DNA of 39,712 nt. It comes from a virus. Lineage: Duplodnaviria; Heunggongvirae; Uroviricota; Caudoviricetes. A program made the translations under genes and the position numbers. Location: the IMG/VR virus record IMGVR_UViG_2778261706_000022; one strand, 5' to 3'. Shown piece after piece: positions 35,392 through 39,712 of this stretch (positions within the stretch are counted from its first letter, which is position 1; every line of letters starts with the position of its first letter). Below the pieces are notes generated by a model. The model ran no database searches. It was given only the letters and a program-made list of their open reading frames with translations, and was not told where the DNA came from.

Positions 35392-35619
35392 TTAGCTGAC
35401 TTGTTTCGCACCAACAGAACGGCATATTCCGCTGTAAACGTCTGTCGCACCTTCGCGATCAAGTCCGGCAGATATCACCATTCGTGTGCGGTCATTAAAT
35501 TCAAAAAGTAAATCGCCACATTCTTTATTTTCGGCCAGTGAAATCACCTTCACGTTATCGAAATTAACCAGGTAAAAGCGTCCGTAAATATCAGGAATAT
35601 TAAATACCGCCATAATCAC
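35392..35619 (-). CDS. Hypothetical early protein (75 aa)
   Basis: ORF immediately downstream of B (the Mu kil position). Confidence 0.4.
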   Translation of the reverse strand: MIMAVFNIPDIYGRFYLVNFDNVKVISLAENKECGDLLFEFNDRTRMVISAGLDREGATDVYSGICRSVGAKQVS

Positions 35620-36548
35620 ACCTGTGAGAGTAATTCAGGGTTGGTATAAACCTCTTTAAAGGCCGCATTAATATGTTTTTCTGTCAGCGCCGCGCCTTCA
35701 CCGCTGGCGGTGAGCCACGCCTGGTTAAGCGTATGTGTCAGAACGCGTAACGCTCCCGGCTTTTCAGCGATAGCCTGCATGACGGCCAGCTCGGCCTCAC
35801 CACTGATCCCCCACGCCCTGGCAATGGCCAGCACATCCGCCTTTTTGGCCTTGCGAAGTTGTTTTGTACGGGCAAGACGGCTGAACAGGCGCGATAAATC
35901 ATCAAAGGCGCGGCGTCCACCTTTAAACAATCCGCGCGGGTTACCAATAAGCACCATCCCGATCCCCGTGGCGTCCTGAATTGCCCGGAGTTGCTCCAGA
36001 CCGTCAATACCCAGATGATCCGCCTCATCCACAATCACCAGTCCACGCGTTCCCATCAGGCGACGGCGGATGGCGCGGGATAATGCCCCTTTGTTCGCGC
36101 GGGTGTAATCAATCCCCAGCGCATCGGCCAGCTCCAGCAGACACTCCGTGACGCTGGAGTGCGCGGGTGACAGGGTGATCATCCAGGTGTTTGGTTGCTC
36201 CTGGCAGTAATTACGGGCAGTGGCCGTTTTACCCACACCCGGTACGCCCACAATAACGTTAATACAGCCCATCAGACGAACCGCCTGAAACAGTGCGCGC
36301 AGCTCCTGGACTGTCTGCGTTTCCACAAACTGCGGCGGTTCCGGCAGTGCGCTTTGTTTATTCCAGTTTTCATACCAGGAACGCAGGGAAGCAGCCACAG
36401 CGGCGTTATCGCCTTTATATTTCCCCTTGCGGAAAGCCGATAATGTGCCGTCGGAAATTCCCGCCTCTCTGGCGATGGCATACTGCGTCAGTACGCCGCC
36501 ATCAATAAGTTCATCAATGGTCTTGATTACATCGTTAATATCAGTCAT
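35616..36548 (-). CDS. B: Transposition ATPase / target DNA activator B (AAA+)
   Basis: Walker A GVPGVGKT and Walker B LVIVDEADH motifs, with an N-terminal HTH-like region. Directly downstream of the transposase. Confidence 0.85.
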   Translation of the reverse strand: MTDINDVIKTIDELIDGGVLTQYAIAREAGISDGTLSAFRKGKYKGDNAAVAASLRSWYENWNKQSALPEPPQFVETQTVQELRALFQAVRLMGCINVIVGVPGVGKTATARNYCQEQPNTWMITLSPAHSSVTECLLELADALGIDYTRANKGALSRAIRRRLMGTRGLVIVDEADHLGIDGLEQLRAIQDATGIGMVLIGNPRGLFKGGRRAFDDLSRLFSRLARTKQLRKAKKADVLAIARAWGISGEAELAVMQAIAEKPGALRVLTHTLNQAWLTASGEGAALTEKHINAAFKEVYTNPELLSQV

Positions 36549-36620: not shown

Positions 36621-38710
36621 CAGGCCAGCGGGTCATTTTCTTTTAATTTCGCTTCCAGCAACTGCAATCCCCGCTGGAAATTACGCTCGTATTCTTCATC
36701 AGGTTCATCGTCAGCGACCGGTTGCTGAACGGTCACCGTATTACCCACAGGGCGGTATATGTTTTCCAGCCAGGGCTCCTGCGGCTTGTGCTCCAGCACG
36801 TTGACAACCTCATCCTCGGCATCACGGATTTTTTCCTCTGCGCGTTTACGCATGCCTTTAAGGCGTTGCTGCTGTTTGTAGTATTCCGCGCTGACCGGGA
36901 AGGCTTCGCGTTTATTGCCGTCCCATACCGCCTCGCAAATCACGCTGCCATCCAGGCGACGTACGGTAATTCGTTCGGCATCATGAATGTCATAGCTGAT
37001 AAGCACCTTACGGCCATGCTCGTCACGCAGCTCGGGCGCGTAGTAAATATTATTCAGCCAGCGTATTTCACAGCGTCTTACAGGGCGTTCCACCATCGGC
37101 CGGAACATATCCCGCAGCTCAACATCGGACAGCCATTCAATTTCCGTGTCCTCTTCCGCCAGGCGTTTTTTTCTGAACTCCGCCGGGCTGTAATGCTTGC
37201 CGTTCGGCTTCACCGGTAATTCATCGTGCGGCCGGTTGTTGTACCACTCAACACCGTCACGAATGGCATCAATCAGTTCAGACCAGGACGGTAAATCACG
37301 CATCGCTGACTGCTGCCGGGCGTTCAGCCGTTTGCCCTGTTGCAGGGCAGTAAATGCCGAGCGTAAATCGCGGTTGGTTTTGCGTAACGTCTCGCGATCT
37401 GCACCTTTCCCGAAATAGGTGCGGTATTTACGGGCTATGCGCATCGGTAATGTGCGGTTAAGCCGTTCGATAATGCCTCGTCCCTGCGGATTACCGGCAA
37501 TCCCGGTCGGGTGATTAATCCCCAGTCGCGGCAGTATCCCCACAACCTCCTTATCCAGGATGTCGGCGGTTTCCCCGGAGCCGTTATCCGAGTAATACAG
37601 AAACGGTTTGCCGTGATGGCGAATGCCGTGCTGTATGGCACCGGCTACGGCGAAAACATTTTCAGCCAGGTCAAGGCTCCAGCCCACCACAAAGCGCGTG
37701 CCACCGTCGATAACAAAGGTCACTTCCGGTGCAAATGGCCGACCGTGAACCGGGTGTGCGCATTTCAGCTTCATGCCGTGACCGTCACCAATCCAGACAT
37801 AATTCACCGGCATTCTGGACCAGTCGCGGCGCGTGAATCCCTCAAGCTGGCGGTATTCACTGCCGGTCACCCGGCCTTTTTGTTTCACCACTTCCGGCAG
37901 TTTCTTCATTGCGCGGCGAATGGTGTCATAAGACGGCATGATATCGAGCATATAAGGCTCATTAGCGTGCCGGTGCTGCCATTCAGCGACAAAATCCTCG
38001 TAAGCCTCGGTCATTGGTCGGCCGTTTGACTGGCGATACTGCGCCAGAAATTCGGGCAGCCAGTTAATATCTTCGGCTTTTATTTCCTGGCGCTTACCCG
38101 GTGCCAGTAAAAGCAGGCGTTCAGCGGCGTTCTGCGCCTTGTTAAAGGCCGCAATCCAGCGTTTCAGCGTGATTTCACTTAACGCGCGGCTGTTTCCCTT
38201 TTTGGCGTTCGCCGTCTCAACCATTGCCACAATGCGCTCGTCCAGCTGCGAACGTGCCAGGTTGTCAACGATAAACCGGATAGCCTTCGCACAGCTGAAA
38301 CCAGGTTGTTGCGCGACTTTCAGAACTTCGCTGACGATCGCGATTCGTGCATCAGCCACCTGGCGCTGGTTTTCAGTCAGGGCATTAAGGCGTTCGACCA
38401 TCAGTTGTGGTGATCCGCGATATGCCTCCACCGCATCAACCACGGCAGGCGAGCGTCTGGCCTTTGTCACCACTGGAGCCGGTGATTCATCGACTTTTTG
38501 AGTCATCAGTTGCAGGGCGTAGCGTTCACGTAATGCCTGCTGCGTCACTTCAGGTAAACAGTCGATGCTGTATTCAGTTGCTTTAGAGCCTGAGCGACGA
38601 CGGGAACAACAGCTTTTCCCTTGTACGTAACGTTGTAATGCCTGGCGAATACCTTTTGTTGTAGCAGGCATTCCGGGCGCGCCAATCAGTTCTTTTGCAA
38701 TGACATACAT
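36620..38710 (-). CDS. A: DDE transposase (MuA-like)
   Basis: 696-aa ORF between ner and B. Central region (WIGDGHGMKLK..., GIPE-like context) resembles the MuA catalytic core. Confidence 0.85.
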   Translation of the reverse strand: MYVIAKELIGAPGMPATTKGIRQALQRYVQGKSCCSRRRSGSKATEYSIDCLPEVTQQALRERYALQLMTQKVDESPAPVVTKARRSPAVVDAVEAYRGSPQLMVERLNALTENQRQVADARIAIVSEVLKVAQQPGFSCAKAIRFIVDNLARSQLDERIVAMVETANAKKGNSRALSEITLKRWIAAFNKAQNAAERLLLLAPGKRQEIKAEDINWLPEFLAQYRQSNGRPMTEAYEDFVAEWQHRHANEPYMLDIMPSYDTIRRAMKKLPEVVKQKGRVTGSEYRQLEGFTRRDWSRMPVNYVWIGDGHGMKLKCAHPVHGRPFAPEVTFVIDGGTRFVVGWSLDLAENVFAVAGAIQHGIRHHGKPFLYYSDNGSGETADILDKEVVGILPRLGINHPTGIAGNPQGRGIIERLNRTLPMRIARKYRTYFGKGADRETLRKTNRDLRSAFTALQQGKRLNARQQSAMRDLPSWSELIDAIRDGVEWYNNRPHDELPVKPNGKHYSPAEFRKKRLAEEDTEIEWLSDVELRDMFRPMVERPVRRCEIRWLNNIYYAPELRDEHGRKVLISYDIHDAERITVRRLDGSVICEAVWDGNKREAFPVSAEYYKQQQRLKGMRKRAEEKIRDAEDEVVNVLEHKPQEPWLENIYRPVGNTVTVQQPVADDEPDEEYERNFQRGLQLLEAKLKENDPLA

Positions 38711-38711
38711 A

Positions 38712-38960
38712 TCATGACGCCTTTCTCATATAGCTCTTAACCTGGTATCGACTGGGCCAGATTTCTTCAGGCGATACCCCAAGAGCATCAGCAATTATTT
38801 GCTGATACGGTCGGCAAGGAGTACGTAATACGCTTTTCAGCGAATCCCTGCTGTAACCAGCCTTTAAAGATAAAGAGCGCAGTGATAAGCCAGCCATGTG
38901 TAAGCGCGCCTTGATGATTTCAGGCGGCCAATCGTGATCTGAAACTTCTCTTCTACTCAT
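38712..38960 (-). CDS. ner: Ner-like DNA-binding regulator
   Basis: 82-aa protein with HMAGLSLRSLSLKAGYS...QQIIADALGVSPEEIWPSRY, matching the Ner/Nlp family. Confidence 0.8.
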   Translation of the reverse strand: MSRREVSDHDWPPEIIKARLHMAGLSLRSLSLKAGYSRDSLKSVLRTPCRPYQQIIADALGVSPEEIWPSRYQVKSYMRKAS

Positions 38961-39127
38961 ACTTCCTCTATTCTAAAAAGTTACCCGCGCGGATATTCGT
39001 GCGGATATCTGTACGGGTAAATAATAGAACAAACAAAAGAACCAAATCAAGGTATTTTGTTCTTTTTATTCTTTGCGGTGTTTTTGTTATTAATATCAAT
39101 AAGATAAATACAAAGGAACCTGAGAGC
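38961..39127. promoter_or_regulatory. Divergent c / ner control region (candidate operators and transposition enhancer)
   Basis: 167-bp AT-rich gap between divergent repressor and ner genes. Contains the 40-bp palindrome TTACCCG-CGCGGATATTCGTGCGGATAT-CTGTA-CGGGTAA at 38981-39020 with an internal GCGGATAT direct repeat. Confidence 0.5.
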
Positions 39128-39712
39128 ATGAACATGAAAAACAGTTCTTTTCTCGACGAAGGAAAAGAACCAGTGATCGAACGGATTTTTCGTCTTGCAG
39201 AGCGTTACAAATCGAGAAGTGAGGCGGCTAGAGCATGGGGAATAAACGTTCAGACATTGCAGAACTACTACAAAAGGAGAAACAATCAGCCGCCACCACA
39301 ACCAAGAAAGCACCATCTCCAGAACATTGCAGAAAGAGAACATGTATCTATGGAGTGGCTAGTCAATGGTTATGGTGATGAGCCAAGCATGAAAAAAGAA
39401 CCAATTGAACAAACAAAAAGAACAAAAAAACAAAGAATTGATGATAGTGATTCCATCATCATGAGGGCGTGGGACTCGCTAACTTCATCTGAACAAGAGA
39501 TTTTGTCCAACTTATTGATCAGAAAAGGGGCCGAACTACTAACCGTTTTGCTTGATACAGATATTCAAAAACTGCACTCATTGAGCGGAGTCAAAAGAGC
39601 ACTAGCATTGAGTCTACAAGAGTTACCCGATGATACTGTAAGAGAGATTTATGAAGAATGTGAAGCTAAGGTTAATCATTTAAATGTAACCCAGAAAAAG
39701 GCTGGTGCGTAA
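39128..39712 (+). CDS. Repressor c-like protein
   Basis: Divergent from ner. ATG at 39128 is preceded by AAAGGAA. 194-aa protein with an N-terminal HTH-like segment (SRSEAARAWGINVQTLQNY). Low GC. Confidence 0.6.
   Translation: MNMKNSSFLDEGKEPVIERIFRLAERYKSRSEAARAWGINVQTLQNYYKRRNNQPPPQPRKHHLQNIAEREHVSMEWLVNGYGDEPSMKKEPIEQTKRTKKQRIDDSDSIIMRAWDSLTSSEQEILSNLLIRKGAELLTVLLDTDIQKLHSLSGVKRALALSLQELPDDTVREIYEECEAKVNHLNVTQKKAGA

Follow-up and report, generated by a model that had tools for sequence, protein, structure and literature searches.

The window analysed here is a stretch of DNA of 39,712 nucleotides, the last 4 kb of which represent the left end of a Mu-like prophage in reversed orientation. 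The MuB-like gene, the gene of the MuA-like transposase and ner are encoded on the minus strand, and the gene of a 194-aa repressor on the plus strand (Table 1). The 82-aa product of ner matches the known structures 1NEQ (E 9e-9) and EnrR (7F9H, E 1.6e-8). Positions 38961–39127 form the 167-bp divergent intergenic region between ner (minus) and the repressor gene (plus), exactly as delimited in the first-pass annotation, and its description there as the divergent c–ner control region of a Mu-like prophage is supported. Of 5426 complete E. coli genomes, 194 contain sequence related to the window, which is chromosomal in every case; many of these genomes are from Shiga-toxin-producing strains (STEC). 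The prophage is of the kind of Mu-like prophage called Sp18 in O157 Sakai (PMC2669165). A closely related Mu-like phage (L004; LC727881.1, locus 1–2836) has inserted into an Stx2c-converting phage, where a 4-bp target duplication is annotated. The end of the L004 prophage is at 2832, ~250 bp past the repressor stop codon; from this, the control region would be ~0.9 kb distant from the left end, which is also the case in Mu.

Table 1. Genes and sequence features of the Mu-like prophage end and its control region (positions in the 39,712-nt window).
Feature	Position	Strand	Remarks
MuB-like gene	35616–36548	minus	
MuA-like transposase gene, 696 aa	36620–38710	minus	PF02316, 26.9 bits (cut-off 23.3); PF09299 Mu-transpos_C
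ner, 82-aa Ner-family winged HTH protein	38712–38960	minus	PF13693, E 2.5e-19
Near-invariant box CTTTTTAGAATAG	38968–38980	minus	between dyad and ner start codon; CTTTTTAGGATAG in most relatives
40-bp composite dyad, probable Ner operator	38981–39020	.	imperfect, 19-2-19
ner-proximal 16-bp sub-dyad (7-2-7), TTACCCG-CG-CGGATAT	38981–38996	.	better conserved half in relatives
Promoter-proximal 16-bp sub-dyad, ATATCTG-TA-CGGGTAA	39005–39020	.	abuts Pe -10 box; would cover the expected transcription start
Putative Pe -10 box, TATTAT	39021–39026	minus	abuts dyad
AT-rich inverted repeat AAAAGAACCAAAT-caaggt-ATTTTGTTCTTTT, candidate operator of the 194-aa repressor	39035–39066	.	spans Pe -35; varies with repressor type
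Putative Pe -35 box, TTGATT	39045–39050	minus	18-bp spacer here
Possible extra repressor half-site AACAAAAACACC	39077–39088	minus	1 mismatch; pattern not significantly enriched in the window
Repressor gene, 194 aa	39128–39712	plus	PHROG 3037 'transcriptional repressor'

A consensus scan of the region has returned a single sigma-70-like match, a minus-strand promoter which, judged by its sequence and place, is the early promoter Pe. The -35 box reads TTGAYW in most of the 27 loci compared, with a spacer of 16–18 bp that is almost always 17 bp long. The TA...T pattern of the -10 box is found in 23 loci; A2 and T6 of the -10 box are present in all 27, and the gap to the adjoining 40-bp element is 0–1 nt. 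Transcription from Pe should start ~6–8 nt into this element, in the window near 39013–39015 on the minus strand. At its other end, the element stops 1 nt from an invariant box and ~20 nt from the ner start codon in the 27 loci. The box, CTTTTTAGAATAG in the window, is near-invariant in these loci from E. coli to Pseudomonas and is better conserved than the 40-bp element. In most relatives the Shine-Dalgarno sequence of ner lies inside the CTTTTTAGAATAG/CTTTTTAGGATAG box, which probably belongs to the ner translation-initiation region. On the complement of the box, a conserved TATYCT hexamer beside ner may serve as -10 box for a repressor promoter Pc like that of Mu; the associated -35 box is weak and lies inside ner codons. 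The consensus scan showed only Pe in the region and nothing convincing for Pc in the relatives, and it also misses Pc of Mu itself.

The 40-bp palindrome reported at 38981–39020 in the first-pass annotation is real, although imperfect. Its arms (38981–38999 and 39002–39020) are complementary at 15 of 19 positions around a 2-nt centre, and the outer 7 bp are perfectly paired (TTACCCG / CGGGTAA). The plus strand reads TTACCCG CG CGGATAT TCGTGCGG ATATCTG TA CGGGTAA, and the dyad can be read as four 7-bp half-sites related to TTATCCG that are symmetric about 39000/39001. No other inverted repeat of this quality is found anywhere in the 39.7-kb window, and when the intergenic region was shuffled 2000 times with dinucleotides preserved, only 6 shuffles reached this quality; the shuffles and the conservation in relatives place the palindrome beyond chance. 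In several relatives the ner-proximal sub-dyad is a perfect palindrome, such as TTATCCG-CA-CGGATAA in L106. An internal direct repeat had also been noted, and two exact copies of GCGGATAT do occur, at 38989–38996 and 39001–39008, but relatives outside E. coli carry the inverted pair GGATAACC...GGTTATCC at these positions. A symmetric A/T exchange in the E. coli lineage (positions 16 and 25 of the 40-mer) gave self-complementary ATAT cores and with them the GCGGATAT direct repeat, which is a by-product of this exchange and therefore not a separate feature.

Homologous control regions were obtained from E. coli genomes, phage records (Yersinia phage Tongde and Pseudomonas phage VW-6B), GTDB genomes and IMG/VR contigs. 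Among Mu-like relatives, including those of E. coli, Yersinia, Pseudomonas and others, 23 distinct versions of the 40-mer occur, with a mean column identity of 82%. Its consensus on the ner strand is TTATCCG TA GAGATAA CCGCGCGG TTATCCG CG CGGGTAA, that is, four TTATCCG-like half-sites in alternating orientation, which also form two 7-2-7 dyads 24 bp apart. In the E. coli group, the members of which have identical Ner proteins, all four polymorphic positions of the 40-mer (9, 20, 21, and 32) are in spacers and none is in a half-site. The 23 versions also showed symmetric co-variation about the centre of the 40-mer, with 10 of 19 pairs changed on both sides (0 of 500 column shuffles were as high), and in slid controls the pairing dropped from 80% to 26–44%. 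No co-variation was detected within each local 16-bp dyad in the same 23 versions. Two independent 16-bp dyads would fit the half-sites but not this lack of internal co-variation, and the whole 40-bp symmetry is the evolving unit. The palindrome, conserved in position and symmetry in the 23 versions, is very probably a regulatory protein-binding site, in line with the first-pass annotation.

Other observations were made in the same set of loci. Among relatives, no clean correlation was found between Arg38 or Lys38 in the recognition helix of Ner and GATAT or GATAA cores. Locus L014, considered as a stand-alone ner homologue with the palindrome and without a transposase, turned out to be another Mu-like prophage. 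A TCAAT-NR-GATAA motif (TCAATAAGATAAA, 39096–39108) is located 20–35 nt upstream of the repressor start codon. This motif is kept across relatives with differing repressors and Ner sites, and its GATAA portion is similar to one of the palindrome half-sites; the motif fits neither a promoter nor an IHF site nor an operator.

Between the window and four E. coli relatives, the sequence from ner up to 39025 is identical apart from at most one substitution (a spacer base) within the palindrome, and it diverges from there on; the four relatives carry a different, 176-aa repressor (WP_000077537). One relative (L002) shares with the window 100% identical Ner and transposase residues 1–250 and an identical 40-mer, and has a repressor that is only 42% identical. 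The pair L009/L103 matches at 40/40 positions of the 40-mer with Ner 98% and repressor 61% identical, and the pair L106/L005 at 39/40 positions with Ner 99% and repressor 60% identical. Three further loci (L111, L116, and L117) have one identical 40-mer and three repressor types. In three independent swap pairs, the dyad has stayed with ner and the transposase N-terminus, and the repressor and the AT-rich repeat have been exchanged. The AT-rich repeat reads ACCAAAAATACC-N7-GGTATTTTTGGT in the alternative E. coli type, ATCACGAAAAATACC-N7-GGTATTTTTCGTGAT in L103, AAAAAGAAC-N9-GTTCTTTTT in L009 and TTAAAAAAACC-N7-GGTCTTTTTAA in L117, and its half-site tracks the putative recognition helix of the repressor, TLQNYYKR occurring with AAAAGAAC and TLNSYFK with AAAAATACC. 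Since the AT-rich repeat varies with the repressor type and the palindrome does not, immunity specificity would reside in the AT-rich repeat, and the palindrome would belong to the ner-A module. The most likely binding site of the 194-aa repressor, as the sequence comparison suggests, is the AT-rich inverted repeat that covers the -35 box of Pe.

Otherwise near-identical ner-A backbones have swapped the immunity module, which comprises the repressor and the AT-rich operators, on at least three occasions. One swap breakpoint (39026) is a few bases from the -10 box and the putative Ner site, and a short island around the -35 box, ACCAAATCAAGGTATTTT, is common to both E. coli types. Within the first 15 codons of the repressor gene there is a perfect 9-nt inverted repeat, GTTCTTTTC-N9-GAAAAGAAC (39144–39152 and 39162–39170), whose half-site AAAAGAAC is also that of the AT-rich repeats at the early promoter. 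This inverted repeat may serve as an additional operator at the beginning of c, comparable to O1 of Mu, or may simply result from the conserved GKEP codons. Further into the repressor gene, an A-rich run (GAACAAACAAAAAGAACAAAAAAACAAAGAA, 39408–39440) encodes a linker rich in Lys, Thr and Gln and resembles the operator-like sequence at 39026–39046; the likeness is probably compositional.

On balance, the 40-bp dyad at 38981–39020 is probably the operator of the phage's own Ner protein. It lies between the -10 box of Pe and the ner start codon, is dyad-symmetric and falls within the range of roughly 30–42 bp, as do Ner operators of the Mu/D108 type, and the gene that adjoins it encodes a true Ner-family protein. 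We regard the positional match with Mu and D108 as the strongest argument for a Ner operator. Across 190 locus pairs, the identity of the 40-mer correlated with the identity of Ner (r = 0.78), also when the N-terminal 65 residues of the transposase were taken into account (partial r = 0.70); the partial correlation with the transposase N-terminal domain, with Ner controlled, was 0.11. For example, L111 and L117 have identical 40-mers, Ner proteins that are 84% identical and transposase N-terminal domains that are only 60% identical. Divergence of the 40-mer thus tracks Ner and not the transposase domain, which favours Ner as the binder. The swaps cannot separate Ner from the transposase because both stay with the palindrome in every swap. 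As ner adjoins the dyad, physical linkage alone could yield both the swap pattern and the correlation with Ner.

The relationship between the repressor and the transposase bears on the question of an enhancer. The Mu enhancer consists of two clusters of transposase sites around an IHF site, overlapping the operators O1–O3 (PMC3145075). The Mu repressor and the N-terminal domain of MuA compete for the same operator/enhancer sites, and the working of the enhancer depends on the homology between the repressor and this domain. The transposase of the window has kept the N-terminal DNA-binding (enhancer-binding) domain of the Mu type, with a BLASTP match to the N-terminus of Mu MuA at E 1e-6. The repressor showed no detectable similarity to the transposase N-terminus (E 0.51), and PF02316 is missing from it; a domain search of the repressor returned only sub-threshold HTH_23 and HTH_psq, and its N-terminal HTH region has no detectable similarity to Mu c (L087, 342–929). 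The homologous PF02316 domain that repressor and transposase share in a Mu-type operator/enhancer was not found in both proteins here, and the competition logic of Mu is therefore not simply transferable. The C-terminal part of the repressor aligns with that of Mu c (QKLHSLSG...LQELPDD / QKLYSFIG...LDALPEE) at a non-significant E of 0.19, and the two proteins could share a distant regulatory tail. Because the AT-rich repeats vary and the transposase N-terminus is identical in hetero-immune relatives, the transposase would not be reading immunity-specific bases. The CTTTTYAG sequence (CTTTTTAG box) has one copy only in the intergenic region. The element AATCAA at 39045–39050, considered as part of an IHF site, is the complement of the -35 box. 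An enhancer probably exists; the invariant stretches of the region, the palindrome and the CTTTTTAGRATAG box among them, are candidates for its site.

Other functions of the palindrome have to be weighed against that of a Ner operator. It is highly unlikely that the palindrome is the operator of the 194-aa immunity repressor and sets immunity specificity. Such a role would agree with its position within the c–ner control region and with its overlap with the probable start of early transcription, a place at which a repressor might act, but the same palindrome occurs in hetero-immune relatives with repressors that are only 40–60% identical. The bases that change with the repressor, and do so symmetrically on both arms, are those of the AT-rich repeats over the -35 box, and it is with the half-sites of these repeats (AAAAGAAC and AAAAATACC) that the recognition-helix types TLQNYYKR and TLNSYFK pair. 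The first-pass annotation had taken the palindrome as consistent with a distinct immunity specificity; this idea is not supported, the palindrome being the same, or one spacer base off, in E. coli relatives with a 42%-identical repressor; in other lineages, too, an identical 40-mer stands beside different repressors. A part in the transposition enhancer, as raised in the first-pass annotation, with the dyad or the adjacent invariant CTTTTTAGRATAG box bound by the transposase N-terminal domain, is doubtful. The transposase does have a PF02316 domain scoring above its cut-off and resembling the MuA N-terminus, the dyad is ~0.9 kb from the prophage end in related loci as in Mu and keeps company with the transposase N-terminus in every immunity swap, and the CTTTTTAGRATAG box resembles the CTTTTYAGTAA boxes that are repeated in the Mu operator region. 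Set against these are the low partial correlation of the 40-mer with the transposase domain once Ner is given, the identical 40-mers of L111 and L117 beside divergent domains, the single intergenic copy of CTTTTYAG, and half-sites that are GC-rich, unlike the Mu enhancer boxes. The two site clusters of the Mu enhancer also flank an IHF site (PMC3145075), and the window has no exact match to the IHF core consensus WATCAANNNNTTR. An extended version is likewise improbable, in which immunity in the Sp18-like clade would be uncoupled from transposition control, with a repressor that is freely exchanged between phages, the transposase domain would read an invariant ner-side element (the dyad and/or the CTTTTTAGGATAG box) and the palindrome would be a site shared by Ner and transposase, possibly also a 5' hairpin in the repressor leader. 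If this were true, the palindrome would be a new enhancer design and not a plain Ner operator.

It is also unlikely that the palindrome acts mainly as RNA, as a stem-loop at the 5' end of either the repressor leader or the early transcript. A hairpin of this kind could make the mRNA more stable or alter its translation, and it could operate alongside Ner binding. For the plus-strand (repressor-sense) RNA of 38979–39024 the folding energy is -23.1 kcal/mol (z = -5.5; none of 200 shuffles reached it), and for the minus-strand (ner-sense) RNA it is -15 kcal/mol (z = -3.1). Co-variation over the whole 40 bp is also the pattern that an RNA or DNA hairpin gives, and it matches the pairing of a full hairpin, position i with 41-i. 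The repressor leader would, however, receive the full hairpin only from a Mu-like Pc on the ner side of the dyad, and no repressor-sense promoter covering the dyad has been identified by the scan that also misses Pc of Mu. An early transcript that starts at position ~6–8 should miss the outer 5' arm, yet the outer arms co-vary. Mismatches are G-U wobbles in the repressor-sense RNA 55 times against 30 of the opposite kind, but this bias stems from few lineages and a poorly paired middle, the outer arms giving 10:10, and the wobble test is hence indecisive as to the strand of a hairpin. The strand preference is moreover inverted in Yersinia phage Tongde, particular bases are conserved beyond pairing, and Mu and D108 show comparable dyads where the Ner footprints lie. 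A scan of 38700–39400 against Rfam 15 returned only a trpB motif at chance level (26.7 bits against a gathering score of 59, E 0.19). A secondary RNA role of the palindrome is possible and is unnecessary to explain the data. Finally, it is extremely improbable that the half-sites are host DnaA boxes (TTATCCACA-like) or that the palindrome has no function. By eye, TTATCCACT, TTATCCGCA or TTATCCATA in the elements of L005, L106 and L111 match the DnaA box at 8 of 9 positions, but the half-sites of the window fit it at only 6–7 of 9, and the conserved CCG/CGG flanks are not DnaA-like. Mu-type replication is not known to need DnaA. That the palindrome has no function is at odds with its conservation, its fixed position and its symmetry.

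With the dyad as the Ner operator, Ner bound there would cover the transcription start and the early transcribed region. It would throttle early (ner-A-B) transcription and would presumably also curb any repressor transcript that crosses the site, as in Mu and D108. Several Ner molecules would be expected to sit symmetrically on the four TTATCCG-like half-sites, a stoichiometry suggested because members of the Ner family are monomeric and bind short symmetric DNA in closely packed pairs. Immunity would be read apart from the dyad, the repressor most likely acting on the AT-rich repeat across the -35 box of Pe.

No operator-level study of the lysis–lysogeny switch in the Sp18-like clade was found in the published literature. 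The analysis provides concrete operator predictions for an uncharacterised Mu-like clade, namely a Ner site of new specificity with TTATCCG-like half-sites and repressor operators with half-sites that follow the recognition helix, and it documents repeated exchange of the immunity module. It also raises the question of where the enhancer is located when a DNA-binding domain is no longer common to repressor and transposase. The Mu paradigm is extended to an unstudied clade and is not overturned; the by-products, such as predicted operators, module swaps and a repressor without detectable similarity to the transposase domain, are perhaps useful to specialists.

Among characterised proteins, EnrR of Edwardsiella (PDB 7F9H) belongs to the same protein family as the Ner of the window. 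EnrR is a monomer in solution, two molecules of which pack tightly on a short palindrome in the crystal structure, and it recognises the AT-rich sequence CTATAG and acts as a nucleoid-associated anti-silencer (PMC9023278). Pairwise packing of this kind is a plausible model for the closely spaced half-sites of the dyad. The base-contacting residues Arg47, Asn51 and Arg55 of EnrR correspond to Asp39, Ser43 and Thr47 in the Ner of the window; because these contact residues are changed, the specificity of the Ner of the window is not predictable from the structure, and the changes are consistent with a different specificity.

Comparison with the operators of Mu and D108, which had been suggested in the first-pass annotation, revealed the same position of the dyad and unrelated half-site sequences. 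In Mu, the scan recovered the -10 box of Pe at 1016–1021, and an 18-6-18 dyad with the core AGCTAGCTAAGT-TTTTAC-ACTTAGTTAAAT starts at 1023, 2 nt after this box. D108 has a perfect 11-8-11 dyad, CCGTGAGCTAC-N8-GTAGCTCACGG, at 996–1025, 24 nt upstream of ner. We take these dyads beside ner to be the footprinted Ner operators of the two phages, that of Mu consisting of two inverted 12-bp sites ANYTARCTAAGT with a 6-bp spacer between Pe and ner. Like the window (19-2-19), Mu has a large dyad that begins right after the -10 box of Pe and stops a few tens of bp short of a Ner-family gene; in both, this gene and the repressor gene are divergent. D108, like the window, has a GC-containing dyad upstream of ner (24 bp in D108 and 20 bp in the window) and beside the early promoter, but its dyad is 30 bp long with two half-sites, whereas that of the window is 40 bp long with four. 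The half-sites also differ from those of Mu, which has two AT-rich 12-mers in place of four GC-containing TTATCCG-like sites. The Ner half-sites of Mu (ANYTARCTAAGT) and D108 (CCGTGAGCTAC) are absent from the control region, even with up to 2 mismatches allowed. Such a difference in specificity is expected because the Ner of the window is ~40% identical to Mu Ner and differs from it in the residues of the recognition helix. The operators O1–O3 of Mu likewise occupy the space between c and ner, about as far from the left end as in the window, O2 overlaps the early promoter as the repressor-type inverted repeat of the window does, and the transposase N-terminal domain is homologous in both; recognition of immunity-specific bases by both repressor and transposase is, unlike in Mu, unlikely in the clade of the window. 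The site architecture had been described as different from that of Mu, but the dyads of Mu and D108 share the layout of the window, after the -10 box of Pe and before ner, and only the sequence differs. Overall, the palindrome is an ordinary feature for a Mu-like phage, with a layout like that of Mu and D108 and a new half-site sequence.
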